Part shown: positions 6,458 through 58,626 of the stretch, piece by piece | Position numbering within the stretch: position 1 is the stretch's first letter | How the letters are laid out: each line of letters begins with the position of its first letter | Origin: Candidatus Micrarchaeia archaeon | GTDB taxonomy: Archaea; Micrarchaeota; Micrarchaeia; Anstonellales; J096 | Assembly: GCA_041500865.1 (NCBI GenBank) | Contig: JBGQMY010000001.1 | Span: 18,834 to 82,833 of the forward strand | DNA: 64,000 nt | Direction of reading: 5' to 3' | Notes under the pieces: generated by a model | Told to the model about the DNA's origin: nothing | Seen by the model: only the letters and a program-made list of their open reading frames with translations | Database searches by the model: none | Position numbers and translations under genes: made by a program

Positions 6458-7549
6458 ATGGTCTATGTGAAATCGGTTGCGCCAACAAATATAGCGGTCG
6501 TGAAATACTGGGGGAAGAACCCCTTGTGGGAAACGTACATGATACCCACCAAGAGCTCAGTCTCTTTTACTGTTGAGGGATTCCAGAGCGAAACCGAGCT
6601 GGACGCGCAGGCAGGCAGCGGCAAGGTGGAGTTCACGCTCAACGACAAAGCCATAACGCCGGACATGAAGGAATACGAATACGTGAAGGACATGTTCGGA
6701 AAGGCGTTTGAGCTGTTTCCAAACACCAAAAAGTACGATTATGCCGTAAAGAGCAGGAACAACTTCCCGACTGCGGCAGGATACGCCTCCTCGGCAAGCG
6801 GATTCGCGGCGCTTGCAAGGGCGCTCCAGGGCGCAATGAAGAGGCTTGAACCCGAGTTTTACGGAAAATACATGGCAAATGACAGGCTGCTTTCGGTTTT
6901 TGCGAGGCTGGGCAGCGGCTCCGCGACAAGGAGCGTGCCGAAGAAGGGTGGGTTCGTGCTTTGGAGGCGCGGCATGGGCCCAAAGGCCAAGAGTCCCGAA
7001 GGCATGGACGCAGCAGCAAAGGGGAAGGCAATATTCTCAAGCTGTTCCAAAAGCGTGCTTGCCCCGGAACACTGGCCGGAGCTCAGGATGATATACACAA
7101 AGGTGGAGGAGAAGGAGAAGAAGATAAAGAGCAGGGCAGGCATGAAAACATCTCTGCAGACGTGCCCGATATACTGGGACTGGGTGGATTACGAGGAGAA
7201 AAAGGACCTGCCGGCAGTCATTGACGCTGTCAGGGCAAAGGACTTCCAGGCATTCGCGAGGCTGGCAATGCAATGCAGCAACGGCCTGCATGCGATTATG
7301 GGATATACGTATCCAAGGATATCATACCTTACTGAGGGAAGCCTTGCCATAATAGACGCTGTCCATGCAATGAACGAGACGGAAACAAAGGCCGCGTACA
7401 CGTTTGATGCAGGGCCGAACGCGATAGTCTTCACGCTGGACAAGCATGAAAGCGAAGTGAAGTCCGCGCTTTCCGAGATAGTCGGAAGCGACAAGGTTGC
7501 AGTGACAAGGATGGGCAAGGGCTCACGGATAGAGAAGGTGGAAGGATGA
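6458..7549 (+). CDS. mvaD: diphosphomevalonate decarboxylase (GHMP family)
   Basis: N-terminal APTNIAVVKYWGK signature and a GHMP ATP-binding motif (AAGYASSASGFAA). First gene of a three-gene operon. Confidence 0.8.
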   Translation: MVYVKSVAPTNIAVVKYWGKNPLWETYMIPTKSSVSFTVEGFQSETELDAQAGSGKVEFTLNDKAITPDMKEYEYVKDMFGKAFELFPNTKKYDYAVKSRNNFPTAAGYASSASGFAALARALQGAMKRLEPEFYGKYMANDRLLSVFARLGSGSATRSVPKKGGFVLWRRGMGPKAKSPEGMDAAAKGKAIFSSCSKSVLAPEHWPELRMIYTKVEEKEKKIKSRAGMKTSLQTCPIYWDWVDYEEKKDLPAVIDAVRAKDFQAFARLAMQCSNGLHAIMGYTYPRISYLTEGSLAIIDAVHAMNETETKAAYTFDAGPNAIVFTLDKHESEVKSALSEIVGSDKVAVTRMGKGSRIEKVEG

Positions 7550-8643
7550 ATTCAGTAAACGTTCCTGGCAAGATACTGTTTTACGGCGGGTTCAGCGTGC
7601 TGGAAAGGGGCAACATTGCGCTAAGCGTCGCGGTCTGCGGGGAGGACGGCAGGGGCGTTGTGGCAGGTGCGGAAATAGGGGCAAGGAGGATTGTCTCGCC
7701 CCAGTTCGGGCTTGACATCAGCCCTTCGCTTGCCGACGGCCAGATAGTCTCTTATGCATACGTGTTTGCCGAGACCTACCTCAGGTCATGCGGCAAGTGG
7801 ACAGGCGACATAAGGCTGAAGGTGGAAAACAGCCCTGTGTTCGGGGCCAAGGACAGGAAGACCGGGCTCGGCAGCTCGGCTGCCGCAACCGTGGCCGTGG
7901 TCAAGGCGCTGTTTGAGGCAAACGGCCTGGACTCCAGCGCGCATGTCGAGACTGTGCACAAGCTTTCGCAGCTGGCATATGCCGCATTCTCAAAGAAGGT
8001 CGGCTCCGGGTTCGACATAGCGACAAGCGCATTCGGCAGAAGCATCATATACAATAGGTATGACCCGGCCGAGATTTCGCTTCCTTCTTCGCAGGAGGGA
8101 GCGGAAATCGGAAGGGCGATAGCCGCTTCTGTCAACAGGCCATGGGGGTGGGTGAAGGCAATCCCGTTTGCGTTTCCCAATGACTACAAGATTGTGTTCT
8201 TCAACATAATAAGGGGCAGCACGTCCACGATAAGCAGCGTCAAGGCTGCCATGGAATGGAAAAAGAGCAATGGCGACGAATACAAAAGGCTGATTGCGAA
8301 GCAAAGGGACGCCGAGGCAAAGGCCATTGAAGCCCTTTCTGCGCATAAGAGCGCCGACGTCAGAAAATACACCCATGTTGCGCGCGAGGCCCACCAGGAG
8401 CTGCAGAAAAGGGTCAAGGGGGCCGTGCCGGATTTTGACCCAATAGAGCCGGAACAGCTGACTGCCATAATACAGGATGCGGAGAAGATGGACGGAATTG
8501 TAGCCGGACGGTGCCCTGGCGCAGGCGGATATGACGGCGTGGCCTTCATAGCCGAAAGCAGATTTAGGGAAACTGGGGAGATAGCCGGGCTTGGGAAAAG
8601 GCATGGCCTGAAGCTCGAGCACATACCTTTGAGGGTGCTTTGA
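7546..8643 (+). CDS. phosphomevalonate kinase (Erg8/MvaK2-type GHMP kinase)
   Basis: N-terminal PGKILFYGGFSVLERG and a GHMP motif (KTGLGSSAAATVA). Four-nt ATGA overlap with the decarboxylase gene. Confidence 0.7.
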   Translation: MNSVNVPGKILFYGGFSVLERGNIALSVAVCGEDGRGVVAGAEIGARRIVSPQFGLDISPSLADGQIVSYAYVFAETYLRSCGKWTGDIRLKVENSPVFGAKDRKTGLGSSAAATVAVVKALFEANGLDSSAHVETVHKLSQLAYAAFSKKVGSGFDIATSAFGRSIIYNRYDPAEISLPSSQEGAEIGRAIAASVNRPWGWVKAIPFAFPNDYKIVFFNIIRGSTSTISSVKAAMEWKKSNGDEYKRLIAKQRDAEAKAIEALSAHKSADVRKYTHVAREAHQELQKRVKGAVPDFDPIEPEQLTAIIQDAEKMDGIVAGRCPGAGGYDGVAFIAESRFRETGEIAGLGKRHGLKLEHIPLRVL

Positions 8644-9522
8644 ATGCCTGGAACAGGATACGGCAAGGTCATTTTGTTTGGAGAGCATTTCGTCGTGCAT
8701 AACGAGCCTGCCATAGTCGCAGGACTGAAGAACATGAGGACTGTCATGGAGATAGAGGAAGGGCCGTGGAACCCTGAACTGGACGAGCAGTCAAAGGCAG
8801 GATATTCGGCTGTTGCAAAGGCCTGTGGCATTGAGGGAAAGACATTCACGCTGAATATCAAGGAGACTGTGCCAATAAAGCAGAACCTTGGAAGTTCGGC
8901 TGCATTTTTTGTTGCGTTCGCCAACGCGCTGAACAAAAAATACAGGCGCGGCATGAAAAAGGATGCGATAAACAGGGCGGCATATGAAGGCGAAAAATCC
9001 ATCCACGGCAAGCCCAGCGGCATAGACAATTCCGCGTCAACATACTGCAAGCCTTTGGTGTTCAGGAAAAACGCGGACGGCTCGTTCAGCATAAAGAAGC
9101 TTAGGATAGGGGCGCCGCTGCACCTTGTGATATCAAACACGGGGCCGAAAAAGGGGACAGGGGAGCTTGTTGCGCATTTCAGTTCGCTAAAAGAGAAAAA
9201 TGCCATTTCAAAGGACATGCTCTCGCTTTACAAAAAGATATTCACAAACGCTAAGACCGCGATAAAGGAAGGCAATGCAGATGGGCTCGGATTCCTGATG
9301 AACGTAAACCACGGGCTGCTTGCATCATTTGGCCTTTCCACACCCAAGATAGAGGAGGCGCGGTTCCTGATGCGGGAAAACGGGGCTTTGGGCTCAAAGA
9401 TAACCGGGGCAGGCGGCGGGGGCAACATAATAGGCCTTTTCAGGGGCGAGGAAGAGGCGAACAGGGCGAAGGCAGAAATGGAGAAGGAAGGATTCAAGTC
9501 CTTTTACGCAAGGATTGAGTGA
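8644..9522 (+). CDS. mvk: mevalonate kinase
   Basis: N-terminal GKVILFGEHFVVHNEPAIVAGL and a GHMP motif (NLGSSAAFFVA). The start codon directly abuts the stop of the preceding gene. Confidence 0.85.
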   Translation: MPGTGYGKVILFGEHFVVHNEPAIVAGLKNMRTVMEIEEGPWNPELDEQSKAGYSAVAKACGIEGKTFTLNIKETVPIKQNLGSSAAFFVAFANALNKKYRRGMKKDAINRAAYEGEKSIHGKPSGIDNSASTYCKPLVFRKNADGSFSIKKLRIGAPLHLVISNTGPKKGTGELVAHFSSLKEKNAISKDMLSLYKKIFTNAKTAIKEGNADGLGFLMNVNHGLLASFGLSTPKIEEARFLMRENGALGSKITGAGGGGNIIGLFRGEEEANRAKAEMEKEGFKSFYARIE

Positions 9523-12820: not shown

Positions 12821-12863
12821 ATGGCAAACATTCACGATAACAGGGGATACCGTGGCGGCAGGC
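12821..12863 (+). repeat. 43-bp direct repeat, left copy (identical to 16921..16963, the start of the Nop5-like gene)
   Basis: Exact 43-nt identity (atggcaaacattcacgataacaggggataccgtggcggcaggc). Degenerate similarity also runs through the 25 nt of promoter sequence upstream. Confidence 0.9.
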
Positions 12864-13202
12864 GACAGCGGCAGGATTGCGAGGCTCCTGAGGCTCGGCG
12901 CCGACGTTTGGGCAAGGGACAATCTAGGCTTTACCGCACTCATGTGCGCCTCATTTGATGGGCACATCAGCATCTGCGCGCTGCTGCTTGAAAGGCTCGC
13001 GCAGGCAGGCGGGGACACAAGAAAGTATATCGAGACTGTGATAGAGGAAGGCATCCATAAGGGATGGGCTGCATTCACATATGCCGAATATAATCACAGG
13101 AAGCCGGCCAAGTTTCTAAAGGCGGCTCCGTTGCTTGCCGAGTCGATGGGAAACGCGGATTTCGCCAAGTTCCTTTCAGGCTTCAGGGAATGCATGGGCT
13201 GA
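12852..13202 (+). CDS. ankyrin-family C-terminal fragment driven by the duplicated Nop5 promoter/start
   Basis: One ankyrin repeat plus the family's C-terminal FAKFLSGFRECMG tail. GTG start in the track. Reading frame differs from that of the duplicated ATG. Confidence 0.5.
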   Translation: MAAGDSGRIARLLRLGADVWARDNLGFTALMCASFDGHISICALLLERLAQAGGDTRKYIETVIEEGIHKGWAAFTYAEYNHRKPAKFLKAAPLLAESMGNADFAKFLSGFRECMG

Positions 13203-13694: not shown

Positions 13695-14138
13695 TCAATC
13701 TTTTATTTTATAAACTTCAAAACCTTCTGCCAAAGCAACTTCTTTTAGATACTTATCCGCTGATGCAAATATTAGTTCATTGTGATTTTTCTTAGCTTCC
13801 AAGGCGCAAGCCAATTGCATTGCATCGAAAGATTCTAATTTTGCGTATTTTTCCATAAGCTGAACGCTTTTTTCCAATATTTCCTTAGTTATCTTTACTG
13901 TATTAAAGGATCTATATTCAACTAAAAAAGCATTTATATCGTTATGCTTCTTCGTCAGATTTGTTATTATTTCGTATGGCAAAAGGGATGAAATTATTAC
14001 ATTTTTAATGCCGCTGGATGCCTTTCCGTCAGATGATTCATTTAATATGGTCCAATATAAATTATTCATTTCGTTCGTACACTGCTCTTGCCTGAATATA
14101 CCAAACAATGCGCTGGTGTCACAGAAATAGTACTTCAT
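13695..14138 (-). CDS. PIN-domain (VapC-like) nuclease
   Basis: N-terminal YFCDTSAL with conserved acidic residues (SFDAMQLA). The ATG at 14138..14136 overlaps the restriction-modification gene TGA as an ATGA junction. AT-rich. Confidence 0.7.
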   Translation of the reverse strand: MKYYFCDTSALFGIFRQEQCTNEMNNLYWTILNESSDGKASSGIKNVIISSLLPYEIITNLTKKHNDINAFLVEYRSFNTVKITKEILEKSVQLMEKYAKLESFDAMQLACALEAKKNHNELIFASADKYLKEVALAEGFEVYKIKD

Positions 14139-16834
14139 TCTAGGCTTTCCTCTATTATTTTCCTTTCTTCATCCGTAATGTCATACAATTTATAGACTTC
14201 TTCATCAATTTCATTATCTAATTTTTGGATTTCTTTTTCAAGACGAATTTTTTCGTCGGTTTGCTTGTCTGATAATAATACAAATTTTTTTGCAAGACTA
14301 AGTCTATTATCAATTAATTTAATGATAATTTGCCTATTTGAATCAATAACTACGGGTAGTATATCTAGAAATTCGCTCCGATATCTCATATATCCTCCGC
14401 CCATATGCATTCCACCAAAAAGTACATTATATACAAAAGAAAGTAATTTACTATTTAATATACCCAATATGTATTTCAGTTCAATATCTTTAATTAAGGT
14501 GGCAAAGTAGACACCTCCTTGAGGAATTCTCTTGTCAAAATCAATAGTTGCACTAATCGTTAAAGCATCTTCCGCAATAATTAATTTATCTTTAAAAGAA
14601 TTCAGGAGCCGTTCAGACTTTTCTCCTGCAACAGTCATCAAATGATGTTTGCTAATATATGTGCCCTCCCTGATAGGGCCCCATTTTTCAAATTGATACT
14701 GTTTAACAATACCAAAATCATTCTTCTGTTTTTCTTCATAATCCACAGGAATTCTGAATCCTTCTGATATCTGTAAAATATCTGACAGTTTCCCATTTTG
14801 ACTCTCAAGTTTTAAAACTAAATTTATTGCTTTCTGGTTTGAGTTTATAGGAAATACTTTATAAGGAACAATAGAAAGATCATTGTTCTTTATATTAGAT
14901 ATTTCAAATTTGTTATTCAAAAAATATGCCAAATTTCTGATAAATCCTAACTTTAAATTTTTTAATTTTTCGCCTTTCCGTATGAGTATAATTACAGGGT
15001 AGTTGCTAGCGTCTTTAAAAATATCCAAATGACTAACACTTAATATTGAACAATCTTCAGAAGAATTCAGTAATAATTCCCGCAATTTTTTTGCTGAGGC
15101 AGCAGCACAAAATTTATTTGGAAGTATAAATCCGAGATACCCTCCTTTCTTTATTAATTTAAGAGATTGCTCAATAAAAAGATAATAAAGGTCGTATTTT
15201 CCTTCGGAAACAATAAACTCATCTTTCCAAAATTCCTTATCTTCTTTATCTAAACTATCAACTCTGACATACGGCGGATTACCAATCACCACGTCAAACC
15301 CATACCCTTCTTTCAGATTGCCGTTTTCGTCGTATTGTATGGTGTCCGGGAACTGCTCGTCCCAATTGAGCGGCTTCTTGTCATCCCACTTTTCGCCGAA
15401 GTATTTCTTCAGCTCCTCTTCCTTCCCGGAAATCAGCGAATTGCCGTTCTTTATGTTCCCGGAAAGCAGGGGGAACATTCCTCTTTTCCGCGAAGTTTCA
15501 ACCGCCTTAAGCAACAGGTTAAGCTCGGATATCTCAATGGCCTTTTTGTCAAGGTCTACGCCGTGTATGTTCTTGGTCAGAATCATGTGGGCATTGCGCG
15601 ATATGTCCTCCGTCAGCATCCCGCTGTCCCCGCCGTACGCCTTCCTGTACGCATCCGCGAACATCCCATAGGCGCGTATCAGGAACGAGCCCGAGCCGCA
15701 TGCCGGGTCAAGCACCTTTATCTTCTGCAGTTTCTCAGGTGTGTCTGCGCCCTTCAAGACCTCGCCAAGCGTGTTTTTGACAATATAATCGACAATGTAA
15801 CGGGGCGTGTAATAAATGCCCATTTCCTTCCTGTTGGCCTCTTTTGCCACCAAACGGCCGCTTTCACGCAATATCGTGGCAAGGTACTGCTCATATATCC
15901 CGCCCAGGACATCAACGTCTATGGCTGAAAAATCCCATTTATAAAGGCCGTCCTCTCCGTCTATGAGCTTCTCGACCACGGCATCGTCAATGTACATTTC
16001 CCCGGCAAAGTGGGGCGAAAACAGGTCACTGTCGTACCATTCTATGAAATCGTCAAAAACCTCCCTTAGGTGGCGCATGAGCTTCTTTTTCCCGTTTTCC
16101 CTCCATATGCGCACGGATTCCCGAAGCCGCTCATTCTCTATCCCAAGGCCCTCGCAGGTCCTTATGAACACGAAGCGGTTAAGCAGCTTCTGGACGCCCT
16201 CATCCACCTGCTCCTTGGAAAGCTTGTTGAGCCTGCTGTGCTCCATGATGTTGTTGGAAAGCGCCTTCCTCCATGCCATCAGGTCGTTAAGGAGCGCCTT
16301 GCCCACCGGCTCAGGCTTTATCTTCTTTCCCACCTTTTCAGCATAAGTGTCTATCTCATTGGAGGCAAACGCCTCCTTTCCAAGGAGCAGCAGTTCGCCA
16401 AGCCGTGAGACATAGTCATCCAGCGTGAATTTAAGGAACCGGCTGTCCTTGTTGTATTTTGCTTCGGCATTGTAGATAATCAGTTCCCTGAAGTTTGTCA
16501 GGACTGCCCATGGAACTGACTTGTAATAGGCATAATCAACCGACTGCTCCGCTTCCTTTTCCTCAAGCTCGACATTCACTGCCTTCGCCTCAAGGAAGAA
16601 CTTAAAGACCCCGGAAACCATGAAGGCATAGTCTGCCCTTGTGCGCAGGACATTGGACTCCATGGAGACTTCCCCAAGATCCTTCATATTCCAGCCAAGA
16701 GCCTCAAGAAGGGGCTCTATAAAAACCCTTTTTGTGTCGGGCTCCCCAAGGCCCTTTAGCATCCCCCTTGCCTCATATCCCTTATATTTTGAGACAAGCT
16801 CGGATATCTTGGCCTTTGCCGCTTCCGTATCCAT
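14135..16834 (-). CDS. Type IIG restriction-modification enzyme, MmeI-like: PD-(D/E)xK nuclease, gamma-class N6-adenine methyltransferase and target-recognition domain
   Basis: N-terminal D...EAK nuclease motif (ADYAF...FLEAKAV). Methyltransferase motif I LDPACGSGSFL at about aa 376 and motif IV GNPPY at aa 518-522. The 899-aa length matches MmeI. GC content drops sharply across the NPPY motif. Confidence 0.8.
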   Translation of the reverse strand: MDTEAAKAKISELVSKYKGYEARGMLKGLGEPDTKRVFIEPLLEALGWNMKDLGEVSMESNVLRTRADYAFMVSGVFKFFLEAKAVNVELEEKEAEQSVDYAYYKSVPWAVLTNFRELIIYNAEAKYNKDSRFLKFTLDDYVSRLGELLLLGKEAFASNEIDTYAEKVGKKIKPEPVGKALLNDLMAWRKALSNNIMEHSRLNKLSKEQVDEGVQKLLNRFVFIRTCEGLGIENERLRESVRIWRENGKKKLMRHLREVFDDFIEWYDSDLFSPHFAGEMYIDDAVVEKLIDGEDGLYKWDFSAIDVDVLGGIYEQYLATILRESGRLVAKEANRKEMGIYYTPRYIVDYIVKNTLGEVLKGADTPEKLQKIKVLDPACGSGSFLIRAYGMFADAYRKAYGGDSGMLTEDISRNAHMILTKNIHGVDLDKKAIEISELNLLLKAVETSRKRGMFPLLSGNIKNGNSLISGKEEELKKYFGEKWDDKKPLNWDEQFPDTIQYDENGNLKEGYGFDVVIGNPPYVRVDSLDKEDKEFWKDEFIVSEGKYDLYYLFIEQSLKLIKKGGYLGFILPNKFCAAASAKKLRELLLNSSEDCSILSVSHLDIFKDASNYPVIILIRKGEKLKNLKLGFIRNLAYFLNNKFEISNIKNNDLSIVPYKVFPINSNQKAINLVLKLESQNGKLSDILQISEGFRIPVDYEEKQKNDFGIVKQYQFEKWGPIREGTYISKHHLMTVAGEKSERLLNSFKDKLIIAEDALTISATIDFDKRIPQGGVYFATLIKDIELKYILGILNSKLLSFVYNVLFGGMHMGGGYMRYRSEFLDILPVVIDSNRQIIIKLIDNRLSLAKKFVLLSDKQTDEKIRLEKEIQKLDNEIDEEVYKLYDITDEERKIIEESLE

Positions 16835-16920
16835 AGAACCAGTATATTCTCAAACAATTATAAACCTTGCCAAGAGAACCCATCCCTCAGGTTTATAAGC
16901 ATTTAACCTAAACTACGTTC

Positions 16921-16963
16921 ATGGCAAACATTCACGATAACAGGGGATACCGTGGCGGCAGGC
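16921..16963 (+). repeat. 43-bp direct repeat, right copy (native 5' end of the Nop5-like gene)
   Basis: Identical to 12821..12863. Confidence 0.9.
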
Positions 16964-17814
16964 ATTACGGCGGAAAGCCCAGCGGAGGCTTTGGAAGGGA
17001 CGGGGGCCGGTTCGGGGGAGGCCAGGGCGGAGGCAGCAACCTCAGGGAAAAGTTCATGCACAGGGCACGCAAGAAGTTCGAGGAGTTCAGGGCAAGGGAA
17101 GATTTATTCTTAATGGAAGTGGACAGGGCCATTGACGACCTGGACAAGATGATAAACCTCATCGGCGAAAGGCTTGAGGAATGGATGGCATTCTACATAA
17201 GCGGCATAAGGCTGGGCGAAAAGGCCAAGCTGGCAAAGCTGACAATACTCATAGCAGACAAGAAGGACATAACAAAAGAGGATCTCAACGCATTCCTCAG
17301 CGAGAAGGAGACTGAAGCGGTCTTTGAAAAGCTGGGGCAAAGGACAAAGGAGGTCAAGGAAAAGGACCTCATTTACATGAAGAAATACGCGGAAATGCTG
17401 CTGAAGATGGTTGAGCTTAACGAGTTTTACGCGAACGAGATTGACGCACTGGCGAACAGGATTGCGCCGAACGCGACATACCTCGTGGGCGGAAAGGTCG
17501 TCGCGAAGATGATTACGCTGGCAAAGGGCCTTGACAGGCTGGCAAAGATGCCATCCAGCACCGTCCAGCTGCTTGGCGCCGAGAAGGCGCTGTTCAATTA
17601 CCTGAAGATGGGAAAGAAGGGCGACCCGCCAAAGCACGGCGTCATACTTTTCTCGCCCCAGGTTTCCGGCGTAAGGAAGGAATACAGGGGCAGGATGGCA
17701 AGGACGCTTGCTGCTAAGCTTTCAATAGCGTTCAGGGTTGACGACGCAAAAGGCGAGTTCTACGGCAAGCAGCTGAAGGAAGCGATAGACAGGAGAATGA
17801 AGGAACTGATTTAG
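16921..17814 (+). CDS. Nop5/Nop56-family (Nop-domain) C/D box RNP protein with an N-terminal Gly/Arg-rich (RGG) extension
   Basis: C-terminal Nop domain (LVGGKVVAKMITLAKGLDRLAKMPSSTVQLLGAEKALF...PKHGVILF...RGRMARTLAAKLSIAFRVD), preceded by a coiled-coil region. The first 40 aa are RGG/GGG-rich. A TTTATAAG box lies about 30 nt upstream of the ATG. Confidence 0.75.
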   Translation: MANIHDNRGYRGGRHYGGKPSGGFGRDGGRFGGGQGGGSNLREKFMHRARKKFEEFRAREDLFLMEVDRAIDDLDKMINLIGERLEEWMAFYISGIRLGEKAKLAKLTILIADKKDITKEDLNAFLSEKETEAVFEKLGQRTKEVKEKDLIYMKKYAEMLLKMVELNEFYANEIDALANRIAPNATYLVGGKVVAKMITLAKGLDRLAKMPSSTVQLLGAEKALFNYLKMGKKGDPPKHGVILFSPQVSGVRKEYRGRMARTLAAKLSIAFRVDDAKGEFYGKQLKEAIDRRMKELI

Positions 17815-17816
17815 GG

Positions 17817-18413
17817 ATGAGATTACTGTTCGTCTCTGACTTGCACGGAAGCGTTGAAGCGCTCAATGCGATAAAAAGGGCGGATTACGGCGCGCTGGTC
17901 ATAGCCGGGGACATCCAGTATGCTGACTGCGCCAGGGAAGTCGCAAAACTAAAAAACGTTTATTTTGTGCCTGGGAATATGGACACAGAACCGGTCCTTG
18001 ATGCAATGAAAGGCAAAAATATACACGGCAAAACTGTCAAGATTGGAAAGATAAAGGTTGCTGGCTTTGGCTTTGCCCCTCCTGGGCCGTTCCACACGCC
18101 AGGCGAGATAAGCGAGGAAAGCATTGCAGAAGGGCTGTCAAGGCTGGAAATTGACGACGATACGGTGCTTGTCACGCATGCCCCGCCTTACGGGATACTG
18201 GACAAATCCGATGGAGGCCGTGCAGGAAGCAAGAGCATAAGAAATTTCGTTCTCGCAAAAAAGCCGTTCATGCATGTTTTCGGCCATATACACGAGGCAA
18301 GCGGAAGCGTGCGCAAAGGAAACACCAATTTCGTGAAACTCCCTCCCGCATACTCGCTAAAGGGTGCATATCTTGATGATGAAACAAGGCAGTACATACT
18401 CTCTCTCATTTGA
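17817..18413 (+). CDS. calcineurin-like metallophosphoesterase
   Basis: Motifs DLHG ... GDI ... GNMD ... THAPP ... GHIH. Confidence 0.7.
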   Translation: MRLLFVSDLHGSVEALNAIKRADYGALVIAGDIQYADCAREVAKLKNVYFVPGNMDTEPVLDAMKGKNIHGKTVKIGKIKVAGFGFAPPGPFHTPGEISEESIAEGLSRLEIDDDTVLVTHAPPYGILDKSDGGRAGSKSIRNFVLAKKPFMHVFGHIHEASGSVRKGNTNFVKLPPAYSLKGAYLDDETRQYILSLI

Positions 18414-18789
18414 GAGAGCAGCCTTCACGGAACTCAGGGACATGGTAGAGCGCATCTTCCCGGATTGCCTTGTGACTGCGGAGAAGGGCGACGCCCTTTT
18501 CAGGGCCTATCTCATTTCCGGCACAATGGGGTTTGTCCACATAGGCATGAGGGACGGCGGATGGAGAATCGTTGGCATAGGCGTAAAGGAAGGCTCCAGG
18601 GGCAATGGATATGGAACGCGCATCCTGGATTTTGCGATAGACCTGATTAGGAGGATGGGCGGGCACAGGATAACGGTCTTGGTCGACAGGAACAATGCAA
18701 CAGCCATAAGGATGTACGCCAGGGCCGGCTTCAGGCTTGCCGGAAAGCACAAGAGCAGGCTCAGGATGGCGCTTGTGCTGAACAACTAG
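18364..18789 (+). CDS. GNAT-family acetyltransferase (start uncertain, probably near 18376-18379)
   Basis: Acetyl-CoA-binding motif (RGNGYGTRIL) and a C-terminal MYARAGFR. The 5' end overlaps the upstream gene. Confidence 0.6.
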   Translation: MHILMMKQGSTYSLSFERAAFTELRDMVERIFPDCLVTAEKGDALFRAYLISGTMGFVHIGMRDGGWRIVGIGVKEGSRGNGYGTRILDFAIDLIRRMGGHRITVLVDRNNATAIRMYARAGFRLAGKHKSRLRMALVLNN

Positions 18790-19625
18790 CGCGCCATTTT
18801 TTTATATATTTCTTTCATCCTCAGCGAATCCTCTGACGTATACGGCGTCTCCGAGATTATGGCCCCTGAATAGCCGTTCTCAGCGCACAGCTTCAGCAAC
18901 GGCCTTATAGGAGGCTCGTTGTTGGAGAACAGCGGCATGTGCGAAAGCTCCCCTGCCTTGCTGTACCTTATTTCCGAGAAATGGGAATGGAAGCTGCTTA
19001 CCGCCTTTTTGCCAAGCTCATTTTCCATGGCGTCAAAAATAACGGCGTAATCCTTTTCGCCCTTTATGGCTCCGCCGTGCCTTGCATGGTAGTGCGCGAA
19101 ATCAACGACAGGGACTGTGTTCGGTATTTCCTTTGCCAGCCGTATTATTTCGGGAAGGTCGCCGAAGGCGCTCTTCTTGCCGGTAAGCTCAGGCCCCAGC
19201 AGTATGTTGCTTATTTTTTTGCCTTCAAGCCATCCGTTTATGGACTCAAGCTCCTTCTTTACGATTTTGAAAACGTCCTCGCTATTCCGTGAAAGATAGA
19301 AGGCAGGATGGAAGACAACGACGCCCCCGCCTGCAAGGCTTAGCTTGCTTGCAGAATCAGTTATGAACTCAATGCTTCTCAAAACTTTGTGCTTTTCCTT
19401 TGCAGCGAGGTTTATCCAGTACGGGGCGTGGCATGAAAGCGCTATGCCGTTCTCCTTTGCCCTTCTGCCGACCTCTGTTGCCGTCGCGTCCGACATGTTG
19501 ACGCCCCTTACGAACTCCAGCTCCATGCAGTCAAGCCCGATTTGCTTCAGGAACTGGGGCGCCTCCAGGCTGCTTTTGCATCCGATTGGCACTCCAGCAG
19601 GTCCGAATTTCAGCATTTGTCGCAC
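18786..19625 (-). CDS. AP endonuclease family 2 / xylose-isomerase-like TIM-barrel protein (endonuclease IV-like)
   Basis: Segments alignable to Nfo: VVFHPA, PELTGKKSAFG, VDFAHYHA, FHSHFSEIRYSKAGELSHMPLF, ISETP. Confidence 0.55.
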   Translation of the reverse strand: MRQMLKFGPAGVPIGCKSSLEAPQFLKQIGLDCMELEFVRGVNMSDATATEVGRRAKENGIALSCHAPYWINLAAKEKHKVLRSIEFITDSASKLSLAGGGVVVFHPAFYLSRNSEDVFKIVKKELESINGWLEGKKISNILLGPELTGKKSAFGDLPEIIRLAKEIPNTVPVVDFAHYHARHGGAIKGEKDYAVIFDAMENELGKKAVSSFHSHFSEIRYSKAGELSHMPLFSNNEPPIRPLLKLCAENGYSGAIISETPYTSEDSLRMKEIYKKMAR

Positions 19626-20200: not shown

Positions 20201-21355
20201 TTAAAGGCCGGCCTCCTTCCTCAGCAGCTCCGCCTTGTCCGTCTTCTCCCATGTGAAGTCCGGGTCCTCCCTGCCGAAGTGGCCGTAAGACGCTGTCTTC
20301 CTGTATATCGGCCTTTTCAGATTCAGCTGCGCGACTATGTCCGCTGGCTTGACAGGGAAATATTTTTCCGCAAGCGCGGCAATCTTCTCCTCAGGTATCT
20401 TCGCGGTGCCGAATGTCTCCACATATATGGAAACGGGCTTTGCGACCCCGATGGAATACGCAAGCTGGACCTCGCACTTGTCGGCAAGGCCTGCCGCAAC
20501 GATGTTCTTTGCGATGTACCGCGCGGCGTATGCTGCGCTCCTGTCCACCTTGGACGGGTCTTTTCCAGAGAAGCATCCGCCCCCGTGCCTCGAGTATCCT
20601 CCATAAGTGTCCACTATGATTTTCCTTCCTGTCACGCCAGTGTCGGCCTCAGGGCCGCCGACCGAGAACACGCCTGTCTCGTTGACGAAGAACTTGGTGT
20701 CTGCGTCCAGCCACTTGCCGCAGACCGGCTTGATTATCTGCTCTATGACCTGCGACTTTATCTCCTCCCTTTTCATGTCTGGGTGGTGATGGACTGCGAC
20801 AACGACCGCATCCACCCTCTTGGGCATGCCATCAACATATTCAACTGTCACTTGGGACTTGCCGTCCGGCCTGACCCATTTCAGTATTTCCTTTTTTCTG
20901 ACCTCTGCGAGCCTCATCGTTATGCCGTGCGCGAGCATTATGGGCAATGGCATCAACTGCGGCGTCTCCTTGCACGCAAAGCCGTACATCATGCCCTGGT
21001 CCCCCGCGCCCTGTTCGTGCGACGCGGACGAATTGACGCCAACGGCGATGTTCTTGCTCTGCTCGTGTATCGAGACAAGCACCCCGCAGTCGGACGAATC
21101 AAGCCCGAACTCCGGATTCGTGTATCCGATGTCCTTGAGCGTCTTCCTTATGACGCTCGGTATGTCAACGTAGCAGTTGGTCGTTACCTCGCCCGCGACC
21201 ATGACAAGGCCTGTCGTGGTCAGGCATTCCACGGCGACCCTGGAATCGGGGTCTCCGGCCAGCATCGCGTCAAGTATCGCGTCTGAAACCTGGTCGCATA
21301 TCTTGTCAGGATGCCCCTCAGTAACGGACTCTGATGTCAATTTGAAGCTCTTCAT
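20201..21355 (-). CDS. metK: S-adenosylmethionine synthetase, bacterial/eukaryotic type
   Basis: GHPDKICDQ(V/I)SDA N-terminal signature and the Gly-rich loop GGGAFSGKD. Start taken at MKSFKL, 21 nt inside the track ORF. Confidence 0.9.
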
Positions 21356-21419
21356 CACATAACACCTTGAAACCATTTTAGGGGATAAATTTTTAAAGTA
21401 ATTTTTTCAAGTTGCAGCC

Positions 21420-38106: not shown

Positions 38107-40899
38107 ATGCCTGGATTCAAGGACTTGGGCAACGCAACCTGGCTCATGGAAAAGGAAGGAATCATGCGGGTTCCTGCAGTCATAATCGGCACAAAGGCCT
38201 TGGTTGACGCCATGAGCAAGGACAGGACAATCGGCCAGCTCAGGAACATGGCATCATTGCCAGGAATAGTCAAGAACGCAGTGCTTATGCCAGACGGCCA
38301 CGAGGGCTACGGCTTCCCGATAGGCGGGGTTGCGGCTTTTGACAGCGAAGAAGGCATCGTTTCACCGGGCGGAATCGGATATGACATAAATTGTTTGCTT
38401 CCAAAAACGAGAATAACGAACGCGTATGGATATTATCGGAATATTGAAAACTATCAGTCTTACTTTTCAAAAAAATATGAAAAGAACGGGGTTTTATTGT
38501 TTGATGGAATGACAAGGATAAGTAGCGGAAGGAAATACGGAAATGCAACACATTACATGCACAAGAGATATTCCGGAAAAATCTATGAGATAACTGCCAT
38601 GGCCGGGAAGATAAAAGCTACGCCAGACCATCCCTTTATCACAAAAAAAGGGAAAATGCTGCCTGGGCATTTGAAAAGGAATGACTTCATACTATCCTAT
38701 CCTTTTGAAGGCATCCGCTATAGAAGATATTGCAAAAATGAGGATGAACTGGCGATTTACGCCAAACTTATAGGATATGCCACTGGAGACGGCAGCATAA
38801 CATCAGGTAATGGCAAGAGAAGTGTCCGGTTCTATAGCAAATACAAGAATGACCTTGAAGATATATTAAGAGATATAGAAAAGCTGGGGTATAATGGAAG
38901 TATATTTGAAAGGACCAGAAAGCATGATATAAATGGAAAAAAATTTACATCAACATCATTTGAGCTTGTGGTATATGCTAAGAAATTTGCCGAAAAAATG
39001 CTGGAATTTGGCTGTATAGAGGGACTCAAAACAGAAAAGGATGTTAGGGTGCCCAAATGGATAATGAAAGCGCCGTTGTGGATAAAACGATTGTATCTTG
39101 CCGCATTTTTTGGCGCGGAGATGTCTTCGCCAAAAACGTCAAGCAAAACCGGATTTTATATGCCGCAGATCAGCCAAAATAAGATAAAGTCCAAGGAAGG
39201 GAGCCTCAGGCAATTTTTTAGCGATATTTCAGAGATGCTGGATGAATTTGGGGTCAAAACAAACAAGGTAAGCTTTGTCGAAAAGATAAAATCAAAAATC
39301 AGATTGAGGATTATTCTTGGCGGAAGCGAAAATGACATAGAAAGACTTTATTCAACCATAGGCTTTGAATATAATGAGGAAAGGATGTTCAAGGCGCTTG
39401 CGGCCATTCTTTATATACGGATGAAAAGGCTGCATCGGCAAAAAAGGGAAGAAACAAGGAAAATGGCGCAAAAATACAGGAAAGCCGGAATTGGTCTGAA
39501 AAATGTCCAGAAAAAACTTGTTTCAAAATGGGCAAATTCCAGATTCATAGAAAGGGCATATTATGAAAACGTTTCTCCAAGAGCGCCATTGGATATCCAA
39601 AGCTTTAATGAATTTGAAAATCACCAGAAAAAGATATACAAAAAATATGGCGCACTTGAAGATATAGTGTTGGACATCAAAACAAGCGAGTATTCTGGAA
39701 AAGTATATGACTTCAGTGTTGAGAAGATGCATAAATTTGTAGCTAATGGCATATTGGTATCAAACTGCGGCGTCCGCCTGCTCAAGACCGGGCTGGAAAA
39801 GGGCGAGGTTGAAGAAAAGAGGCGCGACATAATAGAGTCAATATTCCACGAGGTGCCAAGCGGCGTAGGCAGTGAAAGCGACAACAGGATGACGGTTGAA
39901 TCGCTGGACAGCATCGCGGAGCTTGGGATGGACTGGGCAATTGACAACGGCTATGCAGAAAAATCCGAAAAAGGGAGGATAGAGGAATACGGCAGGATGG
40001 AAGGCGCAGAGCCGTCAAAGACGTCTGCGACTGCAAAGGCAAGGGGAAGGCGGCAGGTGGGAACGCTTGGCGCAGGCAACCATTTCCTTGAAATCCAATA
40101 CGTTGAAAAAATCCTGTATCCGGAGATTGCAAAGAAATTCGGGCTTCATGAAAATCAGGTGGTCATGATGATCCACACGGGCTCAAGGGGATATGGCCAC
40201 CAGATAGCGTCAGATTACATAAACGCGATAATGAGGGAAGGCCTGCCAAAAGGCATCCCCGACCCGGAGCTTGCATACGCAAAACTGGGAAGCAAGGTTG
40301 CGGACGATTACCTTTCGGCAATGAAGTGCGCGGTCAATTTCGCGTTCGTGAACAGGCAGATGATAACGCACAACGTGAGGAATGCGTTCAACAAGGTATT
40401 CGGCAACGTTGAGCTGGAGCTGCTTTACGACGTGGCGCACAATATAGGGAAATACGAGAAGCACAGCGTTGACGGGAAAAACAGGGAGCTGTTCATACAC
40501 AGGAAAGGCGCTACAAGGGCGTTCCCGGCAGGCAGGGAAGAGCTCCCTTCAATATACAGGGAAACCGGCCAGCCTGTCATAATCCCAGGCTCAATGGGCA
40601 CCGCAAGCTACGTGCTGGTCGGCGAGCAGAAAGGGCTGGACGTAAGCTTTGGCTCAACGTGCCATGGCGCAGGAAGGGCGCTGAGCAGGCATGCGGCGAT
40701 ACGGGAGTTCAAGAGCGACAATATAATAAAGCAGCTTGCGAAAAACGACATCTATTTCAGGTCGGATTCCAAAACCGCGGCATCGGAGGAGGCGCCTGGC
40801 GCGTACAAGGACATTGACGAGATAGTAAAATCGGTGGAATTGGCAGGCATAAGCAGGATTGTCGCAAGGCTGAGGCCGATTGGCGTTGTGAAAGGCTAA
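38107..40899 (+). CDS. rtcB: RNA-splicing ligase RtcB interrupted by a 458-aa intein (extein 472 aa)
   Basis: N-extein ...SPGGIGYDIN. C-extein CGVRLL...NHFLEIQYV...HTGSRGYGHQIA...CHGAGR contains the RtcB metal-binding motifs. Confidence 0.9.
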   Translation: MPGFKDLGNATWLMEKEGIMRVPAVIIGTKALVDAMSKDRTIGQLRNMASLPGIVKNAVLMPDGHEGYGFPIGGVAAFDSEEGIVSPGGIGYDINCLLPKTRITNAYGYYRNIENYQSYFSKKYEKNGVLLFDGMTRISSGRKYGNATHYMHKRYSGKIYEITAMAGKIKATPDHPFITKKGKMLPGHLKRNDFILSYPFEGIRYRRYCKNEDELAIYAKLIGYATGDGSITSGNGKRSVRFYSKYKNDLEDILRDIEKLGYNGSIFERTRKHDINGKKFTSTSFELVVYAKKFAEKMLEFGCIEGLKTEKDVRVPKWIMKAPLWIKRLYLAAFFGAEMSSPKTSSKTGFYMPQISQNKIKSKEGSLRQFFSDISEMLDEFGVKTNKVSFVEKIKSKIRLRIILGGSENDIERLYSTIGFEYNEERMFKALAAILYIRMKRLHRQKREETRKMAQKYRKAGIGLKNVQKKLVSKWANSRFIERAYYENVSPRAPLDIQSFNEFENHQKKIYKKYGALEDIVLDIKTSEYSGKVYDFSVEKMHKFVANGILVSNCGVRLLKTGLEKGEVEEKRRDIIESIFHEVPSGVGSESDNRMTVESLDSIAELGMDWAIDNGYAEKSEKGRIEEYGRMEGAEPSKTSATAKARGRRQVGTLGAGNHFLEIQYVEKILYPEIAKKFGLHENQVVMMIHTGSRGYGHQIASDYINAIMREGLPKGIPDPELAYAKLGSKVADDYLSAMKCAVNFAFVNRQMITHNVRNAFNKVFGNVELELLYDVAHNIGKYEKHSVDGKNRELFIHRKGATRAFPAGREELPSIYRETGQPVIIPGSMGTASYVLVGEQKGLDVSFGSTCHGAGRALSRHAAIREFKSDNIIKQLAKNDIYFRSDSKTAASEEAPGAYKDIDEIVKSVELAGISRIVARLRPIGVVKG
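38392..39765 (+). mobile_element. intein with a LAGLIDADG homing-endonuclease domain inserted in RtcB
   Basis: Begins with Cys, ends in SN, followed by extein Cys. Two LAGLIDADG blocks (LIGYATGDGS and LYLAAFFGAE). The insert is about 33% GC against about 55% in the exteins. Confidence 0.85.
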
Positions 40900-40902
40900 A
40901 AA

Positions 40903-43900
40903 TCAAAACGTTAGTTTGAAATACACGCTTACACCCCAGTTGTTGGGATTGAGCCTCTGCCTGGACATGTAGTTCCATGACCAGATGTCAGTACTGTAAT
41001 ACGGCAGCGGGCCTGTGCCCCCTGCAACGCCTATGCCCCATTCGTTCGGCAGCCTCGTGTGGGTGTATTCCGCCCCAAGGCCTATATAATCCCTGGCATC
41101 CATGTACCTTCCATAAGTCAGGTGGAACTGGAGCTTGCCTCCGACCTGGTTGACGTCAACCCAGGCGCGGTCCAGCCCGGCCGTCACCGACCAGTCCTTT
41201 TCCGTCTGAAAGGTGTCAGGCGCGATTATCAGCTTATGACGTTTCCTGTCAGCAAACACATACCATGCAGTTGCTGCATGCTCTACAAGCGTGGGCGCCT
41301 CTACAGTCGTCCCGGTTATTATTACTTGCCACTCGTTCAGCTCCGCGTCGTTCATCCTCTTGGTTCCTCCGACTAGCCCCAGTATGATGTCGGACTTTGC
41401 GGTCCTGCTCTGGTCGTCATTCTGCCTCAGGAATTTCCAAAGCAGCTGCCCGCTGCCGCCCCTTGTCGCAACAGCGGTTCCGGACACGTTCTGGTCGACC
41501 ATGAGCGTAGGCCCGCCCAGAACCCTGAACCGGTCCTTCAGGCCGCCGCCCAGGAACAGGTCCGGGTAGAACTCGCCCTGCGTGCCCCTCAGCGTTGAGG
41601 TGATGCCCTCAAGCCAGCCTTTGACATTCTGGTTTGCGTCGCTGAAGAATAAATATCCTCTCATGCTCGCGCTCCTTGCCTCAAGGTCCGTTGCCCCGAC
41701 AAGGTAGAACTTGCCGTCAACCCCCATGCCAAGCGCGTAGTTCTGCACATCCTTGGACTTGAGCTGGTCAGCGACTTCCTGGATTGCTGCTTTGTATATT
41801 ATCGCAGCTTCTTGGGGATTTAGCGTCGCCTGCTCTTCTGCATTCGTGATGGTCTGGTTTATGCCGTTCATCCATTGCGGCACCTTCTCGCCTGCGGCGA
41901 GCATGTTGAACCTGTGGGCCCAGACAATCAGGGTCGCCATCCCGTATCCCTGCTGCTCAAGGTCGCCCATCTGGTCCCTGACCATTGAATACATGTAGGT
42001 TCCGGAAACGAACGCCCCTGTGTTTTGCGCGTCGTTCCTCTTCCAGCCATAGACGTTGGTGAGGAAATTGGACATGTTTGACTGCAGCCCAAGCAGCTGC
42101 GTCTCGTCTATTCCGCTGTAAACGAGCGTTCCGCCAAGGCCGCTGAGGCCGGCCATTTTCTCTGTCTTTACCTGCAGGCCGCCCACATTGCTTCCTCCCA
42201 ATACCGCTATTACTGCAGCGGACTTTGAGATCTCAGCAGGCACATACCTGTACTTTAGCTCAATGTTGAAGTTGTATTGCTCATTCCCTATGGAGGTTCT
42301 CCTGTACGTGCCGATTACCGCGTCGTCCTTGTTGAACACGTTTGACTTGGACAGGCTTGCCGCCTGCTCGTTGGCCACCGTGCTCAGGCTGTTCCCGTTC
42401 CTAAGGACTATCTGGTTCCATAGGCCTGAGGCTGCGACAGTCCCTGCAGTGAAGCCCACAGCGGCACCGTTGAATGGCGCGTCCTTGTCCGGTATGTACG
42501 TTTTCAGGCTCGCAAGCACGTTGGTTGCGTTCGCCTCGCCGAACTGGTAGTTCATCAGCTTGTCCCTTGTGTCGGTGCCCATCCTGACCTCGTAGGCATC
42601 GCCGCCCTTTGTGACCCAGTACCAGCCCTCCTTTGTCCTTGAGTCCTTGTCATACGGGGAAAGCCCCCAGTTGCCCGTGAAATACGTAAGCATGTCCCCT
42701 TTGTCCTTTGCGACAGGGGCGAAAAGCCTGGCTGCCTCGGTTGCCATGTTCCTTTCCTCATAGGTTCCGGCTGCCGTTGCCGTGTTGACGTTGAAGCCCA
42801 TGTTGACCTTGCTGGCGTCAATGTCATGTGTCATGATGAAATTGTCGCCGGTCTTGCCGCCAGTCACTTCCGTTGTCACTCCGCCGCCGGCGCCGGTCTT
42901 TGCCACGCCCCTTGCGCCGACCTCGACGTACCTGTTCGCGGCCCCGAACCCGCCCTCCATGGAGCCGCCTATCCAGTCATTGTAATACTGTTCGTTGCCG
43001 TACCTTTTCGCGAATATCTTGTTCAGTTCCGTTATCAACGTATTGACATGCGCCCTCTCTATCCGGGCCATCTGCGGTACAGGCGGCCTGAAGTTGTTTC
43101 CTGGCGGGTTTAGCTCCGCATTGAGCCTGTTGTATATGTCAAAGGCGCCTTGCATCAGCAAAGGCATGGACCAGGAGAAGTAGCCGTTGTGGTAGTTCGC
43201 CTGGTTCGGCATGAGGCTCAGCGTCCTGTACTGCATAGGCACGTTGAGCATCGGGAAATAACTCCCCATCTTCGTCATCTCAGACTGTTTCACGTCATAA
43301 TAATACGGGCTCTCGTACGTCCTTGTCTTGTTCCAGATGTCATAGAAGAGGTCCTTGTGCGTGACGTTCGCCACCGGTATTCTTGGAAGGTCAGCGGAGA
43401 TGGCTCTGAACCTCGAAAGCATGTTCTCCCTTTCTGTCATGTTGAAGACATTTTTGCTGAGCCTGGTCTGCAGTTGGGCGCCGAATGTCGCGAAAAACAG
43501 CTGCACGTCGGTGTCTGCATTGGACAGCTGGGCAAACGCCGGAACGACGTAATGCAGGTATCCTGCAATTAGGTACGGGTCCCTGGTTGAAAGCGTCATT
43601 ATGTTCTCCATGAGCCCAGCATATGTCTTGGTGTCCGTTAGGCCCTTTGCCTCCAGGGCGTCGAGCGCGCCTCCAAGGAGCTTTACGTCCATGAGCGTCA
43701 TTATTGAGAATGCCTTGTCAATCGCCAATGCCTTTGACGAAAGCGAGTCCTCTGTCATGCCGCCTGTGCCCTGGTAGTAATTCATTACCTTGGACTTCAG
43801 GGCCTGGAACCTGCTCTTGTCGGATGAAAGCGCGTCGTAGTTCTGCGATATCCACTTGCCGAGCTGGACGGGATTAGATATTCCAAGCGCATCGCCGAGC

Positions 43901-46622: not shown

Positions 46623-47173
46623 AACTGCTTTTCGCGACGCACAACAAGGGGAAGCTTGCAGAGGCGCGGCAAATCCTTGGCCAGAAGGGGGTTGAGATAG
46701 GGCACCTTGAGGTTGAGTATGGCGAGCCGCGCGGGGAGGACACTTCCGAGATAGCGCGCAAGAGCGCTGAGCAGCTTTATCCGATCGTGAAAAAGCCGCT
46801 TTTCCTTGACGACAGCGGGCTTTTCGTTGATGCGCTGAAGGGATTTCCTGGGCCTTATTCCGCTTTTGTCTATAAAAGAATCGGATATGCCGGCATACTT
46901 AATTTGCTTAGCGGGAATTCCAACAGGAAGGCATATTTCAAGTGCTCAATTGCATATGCTGACGAAGACGGCGTCAAGGTTTTTGACGGGACAGTAAACG
47001 GCGGCATATCAAATGCGCCAAGGGGAGATGACGGATTCGGCTATGACCCTGTTTTCGTGCCTGACGGATTTTCCGAGACGTTTGCTGAGATGGATGACAA
47101 GGAGAAGAACGCGATTTCGCACAGGGGAAAGGCATTGGCCCTGTTCGCGGAATGGGTGGCAAAGAAGGATTAG
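46619..47173 (+). CDS. non-canonical purine NTP pyrophosphatase (Ham1/RdgB/ITPase)
   Basis: FATHNKGK N-terminus, FVPDG, and the SHRG C-terminal motif. ATGA overlap with glyS. Confidence 0.85.
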   Translation: MKLLFATHNKGKLAEARQILGQKGVEIGHLEVEYGEPRGEDTSEIARKSAEQLYPIVKKPLFLDDSGLFVDALKGFPGPYSAFVYKRIGYAGILNLLSGNSNRKAYFKCSIAYADEDGVKVFDGTVNGGISNAPRGDDGFGYDPVFVPDGFSETFAEMDDKEKNAISHRGKALALFAEWVAKKD

Positions 47174-47943: not shown

Positions 47944-47994
47944 GCATCCATCGTGCGGCAAAGGGATTAAAATGCTATTGGGCAATGAGATTCC

Positions 47995-58593: not shown

Positions 58594-58626
58594 TTCTTTA
58601 TAAAACGTTTAATGCAAAATAAAGGC

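Follow-up and report, generated by a model that had tools for sequence, protein, structure and literature searches.

How could a box C/D ribonucleoprotein (RNP) position fibrillarin if its scaffold protein, Nop5, lacks the domain to which fibrillarin binds? The question is raised by a short Nop5 gene of Candidatus Micrarchaeia archaeon, which belongs to the Anstonellales within the Micrarchaeia (DPANN kingdom Nanobdellati). The gene is an open reading frame (ORF) with an ATG start that occupies positions 16921-17814 of the plus strand and encodes 297 amino acids (aa); the sequence under study, referred to throughout as the window, is the whole 64-kb stretch of contig JBGQMY010000001.1 in which it lies. 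To our knowledge, all structural and biochemical models of box C/D RNPs place fibrillarin on its substrate through the N-terminal domain (NTD) of Nop5, Nop56, or Nop58. A whole phylum that keeps fibrillarin, L7Ae, and a conserved Nop5 core without the NTD provides a natural test of the necessity of this tether, and any of three outcomes would be informative: a new mode of recruitment, a methylation-independent scaffolding role for Nop5, L7Ae, and small guide RNA (sRNA), or a new effector. Cultivable Micrarchaeota co-cultures (e.g., that of Mia14) make the question experimentally addressable.

The protein is almost certainly the Nop5 (aNOP56) orthologue of the Micrarchaeota lineage. Pfam recognized a single domain in it, Nop (PF01798; residues 71-294, E=8e-44), and a phmmer search of the PDB aligned residues 41-296 with residues 117-374 of Sulfolobus solfataricus Nop5 without large gaps (E=9e-43), in agreement with the initial annotation, which had read a Nop5-like coiled coil and Nop domain from the letters alone. 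The same annotation had held the fibrillarin-interacting NTD of approximately 120 aa to be absent, and this was borne out: the Pfam search of the 297-aa protein gave no match to PF21572, the archaeal Nop5 N-domain, and only positions 124-375 of the 417 in the NCBIfam aNOP56 equivalog model NF011121 were matched (E=1e-58), positions 1-123, equivalent to the NTD, being without a counterpart. At 199.4 bits, the score did not reach the curated equivalog cut-off of 452. The family alignment and structural model that had been called for yielded a Nop5-type fold. In the AlphaFold2 model, built from an 86-sequence alignment and having a mean predicted local distance difference test score (pLDDT) of 87, residues 1-36 are disordered, the helices 60-92 and 147-181 form a coiled coil with a tip insertion between them (pLDDT 84-97), and residues 183-296 fold as the helical Nop core. 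The top Foldseek match was chain A of 3PLA, the Nop5 of an active S. solfataricus C/D RNP (TMq 0.78, rmsd 2.4 Å), and for 3NVI, a complex of truncated Nop5 with L7Ae and C/D RNA, the target-normalised TM-score was 0.88. Across the 86 Nop5 sequences, short and canonical, 20 alignment columns are invariant, and the protein retains every one; 19 lie in the Nop core (183-297), in a region that includes P183, N184, Q216/GAE.ALF, PPK.G, R256, G257, R261, A270, and D274, and the Nop-domain motifs appear as GAEKALF, PPKHG, and RGK.AR. Judged from alignment and model together, residues 41-182 represent the predicted dimerisation module of Nop5, and the core the predicted module for binding L7Ae and kink-turn (K-turn) RNA.

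Compared with the archaeal Nop5 proteins of known structure (S. solfataricus 3ID5 and 3PLA; Pyrococcus furiosus 2NNW and 3NMU), the coiled coil and Nop domain are thus alike (33-35% identity, TM-scores of 0.72-0.78), and some relatives of the short Nop5 are likewise linked to genes for fibrillarin or L7Ae. The differences are that the fibrillarin-binding NTD is missing, that a Gly/Arg-rich (RG) tract has been added at the N-terminus, and that a metallophosphoesterase gene follows in place of fibrillarin, an adjacency that is typical of archaea but not obligatory. Both the 40-aa tract and the downstream phosphoesterase had been correctly noted in the initial annotation; the tract contains 16 Gly and 5 Arg.

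Absence of the NTD is a property of the clade. It was surveyed among the 120 closest database proteins and at 80 loci, one genome being taken per GTDB species. Approximately 65 of the 120 homologues are NTD-less, with lengths of 250-330 aa; those that are named carry the labels Micrarchaeota, Micrarchaeia, or Anstonellales, and the databases list such proteins as 'NOP5/NOP56 family protein' or 'nucleolar protein 56'. Every one of the 22 species loci titled Micrarchaeota encodes an NTD-less form, in which no more than approximately 100 residues, none of them NTD, precede the core or, at L036, approximately 150-200 RG-rich residues. An NTD of 80-150 aa is present at 55 of the 58 other loci (Thermoproteota, Bathyarchaeia, Thermococci, Heimdallarchaeota, and others), the remaining three being short as well. 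These three, L087 (a metagenome-assembled genome (MAG) labelled Marsarchaeota), L085 ('archaeon MAG1'), and L057 (LFW-281_7), have NTD-less Nop5 despite their non-Micrarchaeota labels; the cause may be wrong labels or contamination of the bins, or else a distribution of the short form that reaches beyond the phylum. Neighbour-joining of the core region placed every NTD-less protein in one clade, nested beside canonical Nop5, a topology that would fit a single ancestral loss of the NTD. The core differs from that of the 82%-identical relative at L090 by 60 synonymous and 30 non-synonymous codons, and the gene is under strong purifying selection. No canonical Nop5 labelled Micrarchaeota was encountered among the 22 species loci or the named database proteins, and full-text searches of the literature returned no description of an NTD-less Nop5 in Micrarchaeota or DPANN archaea, or of tails resembling glycine/arginine-rich (GAR) domains on archaeal Nop5. 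Because two defining features of the curated family, the NTD and the equivalog score, are lacking, the protein is best classed as an NTD-less variant of Nop5 and not as canonical aNOP56, Prp31, or TasA. Both COG1498 and COG1889 serve as archaeal single-copy markers (PMC9258230), and hence both annotation and the marker sets used for completeness are affected.

The initial annotation had further proposed that the NTD was replaced by the RG tract. The tract itself is real: given the Gly frequency of the remaining protein, at least 16 Gly in 40 residues has a probability of approximately 3e-10, one RGG, two RG, three GR, and two R.GG motifs are present, and AlphaFold2 assigned no secondary structure, scoring residues 1-19 and 21-35 below 50 in pLDDT. 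No other real gene of the window encodes a genuine RG tract. With its clustered RG/RGG motifs in Gly-rich disorder, the tract belongs with GAR/RGG domains, at the weak end of their range; those of P0004 and P0017-P0030 are longer and more typical. The close homologues P0002 (86% identity), P0003 (82%), and P0004 (65%) have RG-rich N-termini of 41, 39, and 144 aa, respectively, in which the frame is kept despite indels, and P0002 and P0003 share the start MA.[RI]HDNRGYRG. Relative to L090, 16 of the 40 tract codons are identical, 11 differ synonymously and 12 non-synonymously, one is a whole-codon gap, and residues 1-25 hardly vary. At the nucleotide level, the tract is not a tandem repeat. A TATA-box-like element precedes the gene (Table 1), with TTTTTAA at the equal offset in L090. 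Since the usual position of the archaeal TATA box is approximately -26 from the transcription start, this element may act as the promoter, which points to a transcript with little or no leader, beginning at the ATG at 16921. Given the conserved frame, the synonymous changes, the constant offset of the TATA-like element, and the lack of a nucleotide repeat, the tract is, on comparative grounds, a translated part of the protein.

What did not survive is the notion of replacement. Loss of the NTD is clade-wide (22/22), whereas the RG tract is confined to some subclades: its length ranges from 0 to 144 aa in the NTD-less clade, tracts of 22-144 aa appear in at least five separate subclades, and many members are bare, having neither NTD nor RG tract. 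Some carry instead a C-terminal, basic K/R/G-rich tail of up to 235 aa; at L044, for example, the disordered tail of the short Nop5 is R/G/N-rich and C-terminal. The tract would hence seem to be a variable accessory and not a one-to-one functional substitute for the NTD, and from its composition it may bind RNA non-specifically. As to how unusual such a tail is, the earlier view has to be qualified. Canonical crenarchaeal Nop5 proteins have K/R/G-rich C-terminal tails of 25-45 aa, and basic disordered tails are thus common in the family; the present tail is unusual in lying at the N-terminus and in its Gly/Arg/Phe character. Units similar to RPSGGFGGRP, which recall the RGGF repeats of eukaryotic GAR domains, are common to distant subclades. 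Eukaryotic GAR/RGG domains (fibrillarin, Gar1, nucleolin) and the KKE/D tails of Nop56 and Nop58 likewise place a low-complexity, disordered, G/R/F-rich tail on a core of small nucleolar RNP (snoRNP) type. In the Micrarchaeota the tail is on Nop5 and not on fibrillarin, and in the protein under study it is short (40 aa, 5 Arg). GAR-like tails would appear to have arisen repeatedly on an archaeal snoRNP-type protein, outside the eukaryotes. Archaeal fibrillarins are without GAR domains (PMC7608942).

Whether the short Nop5 still has a fibrillarin with which to work was addressed from the gene content of its relatives. A six-frame search with hidden Markov models (HMM) found no coding sequence for fibrillarin or for a Nop5 NTD in the window, and no L7Ae was found there by phmmer, using a query that recovered a clear L7Ae at L044. 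Fibrillarin is in the flank of 48 of the 58 non-Micrarchaeota loci, directly downstream of Nop5 in 46. The initial annotation had pointed out that no fibrillarin gene follows the short Nop5. This is no sign of its loss from the lineage, as fibrillarins of normal length are abundant in Micrarchaeota: a search seeded with one of them returned more than 100 relatives, of which approximately 20, with a median length of 219 aa, are named Micrarchaeota, Micrarchaeia, Norongarragalinales, or Gugararchaeum, and none of these approximately 20 has a fused NTD or GAR domain. Mia14, a micrarchaeon in culture, encodes one each of fibrillarin (arCOG00078), the Nop5 family (arCOG01923), and L7Ae (PMC5498576, supplementary data 3). 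The Micrarchaeota MAGs L080 and L092 each encode fibrillarin (217-218 aa) directly after a short Nop5 (259-266 aa) that is bare, and at L044 the L7Ae gene lies approximately 0.5 kb upstream of the short Nop5 (L044 9022-10981). It is probable that the RG-tailed Nop5 P0047, the phosphoesterase P0279, and the fibrillarin P0219 (on SRR28579829_175) reside on one contig, the longest contig recorded for each of the three being 36,873 bp. In Methanomassiliicoccales and Methanomicrobiales loci (L013, L026, L030, L056, L059, L078, L081, and L082), where the N-terminal region of Nop5 is shortened to 86-105 aa, fibrillarin is also not adjacent to Nop5, being approximately 8 kb upstream in L078 and L081; the two genes have therefore come apart outside Micrarchaeota as well.

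A separate source for the missing domain was also sought. A split gene, in which the NTD would be a protein of its own or part of fibrillarin, was rejected: across approximately 400 kb of Micrarchaeota loci the NTD HMM gave nothing but weak noise, confined to the Nop5 proteins, and the Micrarchaeota fibrillarins are of normal length. Two candidates for a fibrillarin-adjacent adaptor fared no better: the 190-aa coupled ORF upstream at L088 looks Cys-rich with a signal-peptide-like N-terminus, and the 152-aa ORF after fibrillarin at L092 has no relatives in other loci. No conserved adaptor was seen near Nop5 or fibrillarin in the Micrarchaeota loci examined.

Taken together, these data favour, with a probability of roughly 0.6, the view that the short Nop5 is the sole Nop5 of its lineage, that its NTD was deleted in the ancestor of the clade, and that it still forms an L7Ae-containing box C/D RNP in which the RG tail aids RNA binding and fibrillarin is recruited weakly or non-canonically. 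The protein would homodimerise through its coiled coil, and each Nop domain would dock on an L7Ae-bound K-turn (the C/D or C'/D' motif) of an sRNA, as proposed from the behaviour of the engineered NTD-truncated Pyrococcus Nop5 in 3NVI. That equivalence, together with the invariant residues and the adjacency of L7Ae at L044, is consistent with a putative association of Nop5, L7Ae, and RNA. The flexible RG tail may add non-specific electrostatic binding of RNA and may stabilise the contact with a guide-substrate duplex or with rRNA, or promote local concentration. The GAR and KKE tails of eukaryotic snoRNP proteins are thought to act likewise. With the canonical tether gone, fibrillarin would have to be recruited weakly or by a non-canonical contact, perhaps with the RG tail, the coiled coil, or the guide-substrate duplex; the adjacency of short Nop5 and fibrillarin in one subclade argues that the two still work together.

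Several observations weigh against this reading. We know of no structurally characterised contact of Nop5, Nop56, or Nop58 with fibrillarin that does not pass through the NTD, and a protein without it therefore has no known way to position fibrillarin. At most Micrarchaeota loci the Nop5 and fibrillarin genes are uncoupled, with the phosphoesterase in the former place of fibrillarin. An Rfam scan of the window at gathering thresholds detected two tRNAs only and no C/D sRNA, while strict and relaxed scans for C/D'/C'/D motifs gave 0-1 matches in the window, 2 across the 382 kb covered at Micrarchaeota loci, and no more than 1-2 in 265 kb of control loci from crenarchaea and Thermococcus, so that their sensitivity is low. 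A scan of 2.8 kb of intergenic sequence for C and D boxes with a stem also found nothing. Being insensitive, these negatives do not tell the competing readings apart. The sole relaxed match in the window, at 53822-53877 on the minus strand, has two mismatches and is antisense inside a 1125-aa ORF; it is probably due to chance.

The most serious competitor, which we nevertheless hold to be unlikely, is a scaffold or chaperone that acts, like Prp31, independently of fibrillarin: a dimer of short Nop5, with L7Ae, small K-turn RNAs, and the RG tail, would do no more than base-pair with rRNA or other RNAs and chaperone them, and fibrillarin would act separately or with another partner. Such a role would account for the clade-wide loss of the only known fibrillarin-binding module, for the separation of the Nop5 and fibrillarin genes in most Micrarchaeota, and for the lack of any split NTD or conserved adaptor near either. 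The same architecture, moreover, is seen in the Prp31 core and in the 3NVI construct, which binds L7Ae and RNA without fibrillarin. In 3NVI, the engineered truncated P. furiosus Nop5 bound to L7Ae and box C/D RNA is essentially identical in domain content (35% identity over 243 columns), and its existence demonstrates that Nop5 shortened in this way can still form a complex with L7Ae and C/D RNA; it is, however, a laboratory construct, whereas the short Nop5 occurs in nature across the clade and here has an RG tail in addition. Prp31 of the U4 snRNP (2OZB, 3SIU) also comprises a coiled coil and Nop domain without the fibrillarin-binding NTD, and it binds the composite platform formed by 15.5K/L7Ae and the K-turn. 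Yet the resemblance in sequence is far weaker (21% identity), the Prp31 C-terminal domain is lacking here, and Prp31 is a eukaryotic, spliceosomal protein. Identity with Prp31 itself was rejected: Nop was the only Pfam family matched, and phmmer matched Prp31 only with E~1e-13, as opposed to E~1e-43 for Nop5. Against the scaffold stand this much closer kinship to Nop5, the short Nop5 genes that adjoin fibrillarin in L080 and L092, and the retention of fibrillarin in these reduced genomes. Fibrillarin alone is a poor enzyme, which also counts against a scaffold that does without it.

Distinctly unlikely, in our view, is the broader proposition that the box C/D RNP has been rewired, either through a new fibrillarin contact or through repurposing of the platform of Nop5, L7Ae, and guide RNA for delivery of the phosphoesterase or as an RNA chaperone. 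Its consequences would be considerable. In TIGR-Tas systems, TasA is a solo-Nop protein whose dimers are joined by a Nop5-like coiled coil, and the NTD of Nop5 has been interpreted as an added dead RuvC-like module that recruits fibrillarin (PMC12045711). If the RNP were rewired, the short protein would be the first natural cellular Nop5 to work without the dead RuvC-like NTD, and a living counterpart of the solo-Nop stage in the scenario that leads from TIGR-Tas to box C/D. The short Nop5 is nested among box C/D Nop5 proteins in the tree, and secondary loss of the NTD is for that reason the more likely history; from phylogeny, we would most likely be dealing with a cellular, box C/D-type Nop5 that lost the dead RuvC-like module secondarily.

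Improbable, though suggested by the gene neighbourhood, is a swap of effectors, in which the Nop-domain RNP would deliver the co-operonic metallophosphoesterase, and perhaps also an acetyltransferase of the GNAT family encoded by the third gene, to RNA targets. The phosphoesterase holds the position that fibrillarin has in other archaea, its catalytic motifs are intact in the translation (DLH, GD, GNMD, TH, and GHIH), and an orthologue of it (E 1e-27 to 1e-39) is the next gene after the short Nop5 at 15 of the 22 species loci titled Micrarchaeota. L006 and L093 show this gene order too, and it is kept across Nop5 identities of only approximately 33-38%. The junctions have the appearance of translational coupling, with a 2-nt gap here and 4-nt overlaps in relatives (L093 and L095-L101); in the RG-tailed clade around P0047, all three genes overlap by 4 nt. 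There is also precedent for modular effectors, Nop-domain proteins being known with RuvC or HNH (TIGR-Tas) or with fibrillarin (C/D RNPs) (PMC12045711). The phosphoesterase family is, however, generic, YfcE-like, and widespread: the protein matches TIGR00040 (yfcE) below the cut-off, its PDB match, to MPPED2, is weak, and relatives occur in Iainarchaeum, Nanoarchaeota, Bathyarchaeia, and Acidobacteria. With a family this broad and matches this generic, a Micrarchaeota-specific partner was rejected. The GNAT protein, which corresponds to the L001 gene call and matches TIGR01575 (rimI) below the cut-off, is in the equivalent place at 8 of the 22 Micrarchaeota loci, and at L090 and L091 (82% identical) it follows Nop5 directly, without the phosphoesterase. 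The terminator-like site at its end (Table 1) would likely mark the end of a three-gene transcription unit. The synteny of Nop5 and phosphoesterase is thus real and phylum-deep; as evidence for a functional link it is only suggestive, weakened by the lack of the phosphoesterase in L090 and L091, the presence of fibrillarin in its place in the L080/L092 clade, and the breadth of the family, and synteny within a single phylum is weak evidence of physical interaction.

Directly upstream and divergent, at 13695-16834 on the minus strand, is a gene for an 899-aa MmeI/Eco57I-like type IIG restriction-modification fusion enzyme, beyond which comes a PIN-domain protein. Relatives (L006 and the P0021 locus) have genes for an MJ0538-like protein and a KaiC-like ATPase at that position, and the type IIG gene consequently looks like an insertion.

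That the short protein is a paralogue, or a degenerate copy, beside a canonical full-length Nop5 elsewhere in the genome is very improbable. The initial annotation had named such a paralogue, or a Prp31-like protein, as what would overturn its interpretation; inspection covered 64 kb of the genome, and the score below the NCBIfam cut-off would agree with a divergent copy. Neither part of that scenario found support, however: a canonical form is found at 0 of the 22 Micrarchaeota species loci and in no named Micrarchaeota protein, Mia14 has a single arCOG01923 member, and the strong purifying selection and the retention of all family-invariant residues are not those of a degenerate copy. Scarcely to be credited is an artefact, in which the true start would be Met46 with the RG tract untranslated, or a truncation, frameshift, or assembly error would have removed the NTD. 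One homologue, P0005, is indeed called from an internal Met (252 aa) on a 1.4-kb contig. In the window, however, an in-frame TAA stands at 16909-16911, three codons (9 nt) 5' of the ATG, and the divergent minus-strand neighbour ends at 16834, which leaves a spacer of 86 bp; hence, no NTD is hidden 5' of the ORF. An identical protein is present in two assemblies (NCBI and JGI), and the frame and start kept in P0002-P0004 despite indels, the synonymous substitutions inside the tract, and the conserved TATA-like box 23 nt upstream likewise speak against an error. A TasA-like solo-Nop protein of a TIGR-Tas RNA-guided system, finally, would have the same minimal architecture, a coiled coil and Nop domain that neither a nuclease nor a dead-RuvC domain precedes (PMC12045711), but is already contradicted and has virtually no claim left, given the lack of an interspaced repeat array beside the gene or in the window (the flanks being coding, with the short upstream spacer), the match to the aNOP56 equivalog, the 35% identity to Nop5 structures, and synteny of a housekeeping type.

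Table 1. Features of the short Nop5 gene and of the two genes that follow it in the window.
Feature	Position	Strand	Basis or remark
TATA-box-like element, TTTATAA	16892-16898	+	Read from sequence; ends 23 nt 5' of the ATG
Codons 1-40, disordered Gly/Arg-rich (GAR-like) tract, MANIHDNRGYRGGRHYGGKPSGGFGRDGGRFGGGQGGGSN	16921-17040	+	Composition, AlphaFold2
Residues 41-182, linker helix, antiparallel coiled coil (60-92, 147-181), and tip insertion	17041-17466	+	phmmer, AlphaFold2, Foldseek
Residues 183-297 and stop, Nop-domain core	17467-17814	+	PF01798, invariant columns, 3NVI match
YfcE/MJ0936-type metallophosphoesterase, 198 aa	17817-18413	+	Pfam Metallophos_2 and Metallophos; starts 2 nt after the Nop5 stop
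GNAT (RimI-like) acetyltransferase, third gene	18376-18789	+	Pfam Acetyltransf_1, E=2e-13; overlaps the end of the phosphoesterase gene
Short stem and T-run at the end of the GNAT gene	18774-18803	+	Only terminator-like plus-strand site in 16700-19000

Other features of the window were recorded in passing. Four very large ORFs have no Pfam match or a faint one: 40903-45060 (minus strand, 1385 aa), 49295-51925 (plus, 876 aa), 52314-55691 (plus, 1125 aa), and 61136-63625 (minus, 829 aa). A cluster of mevalonate-pathway genes (MVD-like and GHMP kinases) is at 6458-9522 on the plus strand. At least five ankyrin-repeat proteins are encoded, at 12852-13202, 47170-48354 (minus strand), 55688-56284, 58405-59187, and 59227-59988, a number that seems unusual for 64 kb of an archaeon; a 99-bp tandem repeat lies inside one of these genes, at 47533-47748. 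The gene for RNA ligase RtcB (38107-40899, plus strand) contains an intein with a LAGLIDADG homing endonuclease, giving a product of 930 aa with the Pfam order RtcB, Intein_splicing, LAGLIDADG_3, and RtcB. The bacterial-type S-adenosylmethionine synthetase MetK (20201-21376, minus strand; 391 aa) is free of an intein, whereas MetK in the 82%-related MAGs (L090 7400-9907) has one with LAGLIDADG (835 aa), a presence/absence polymorphism between close relatives.

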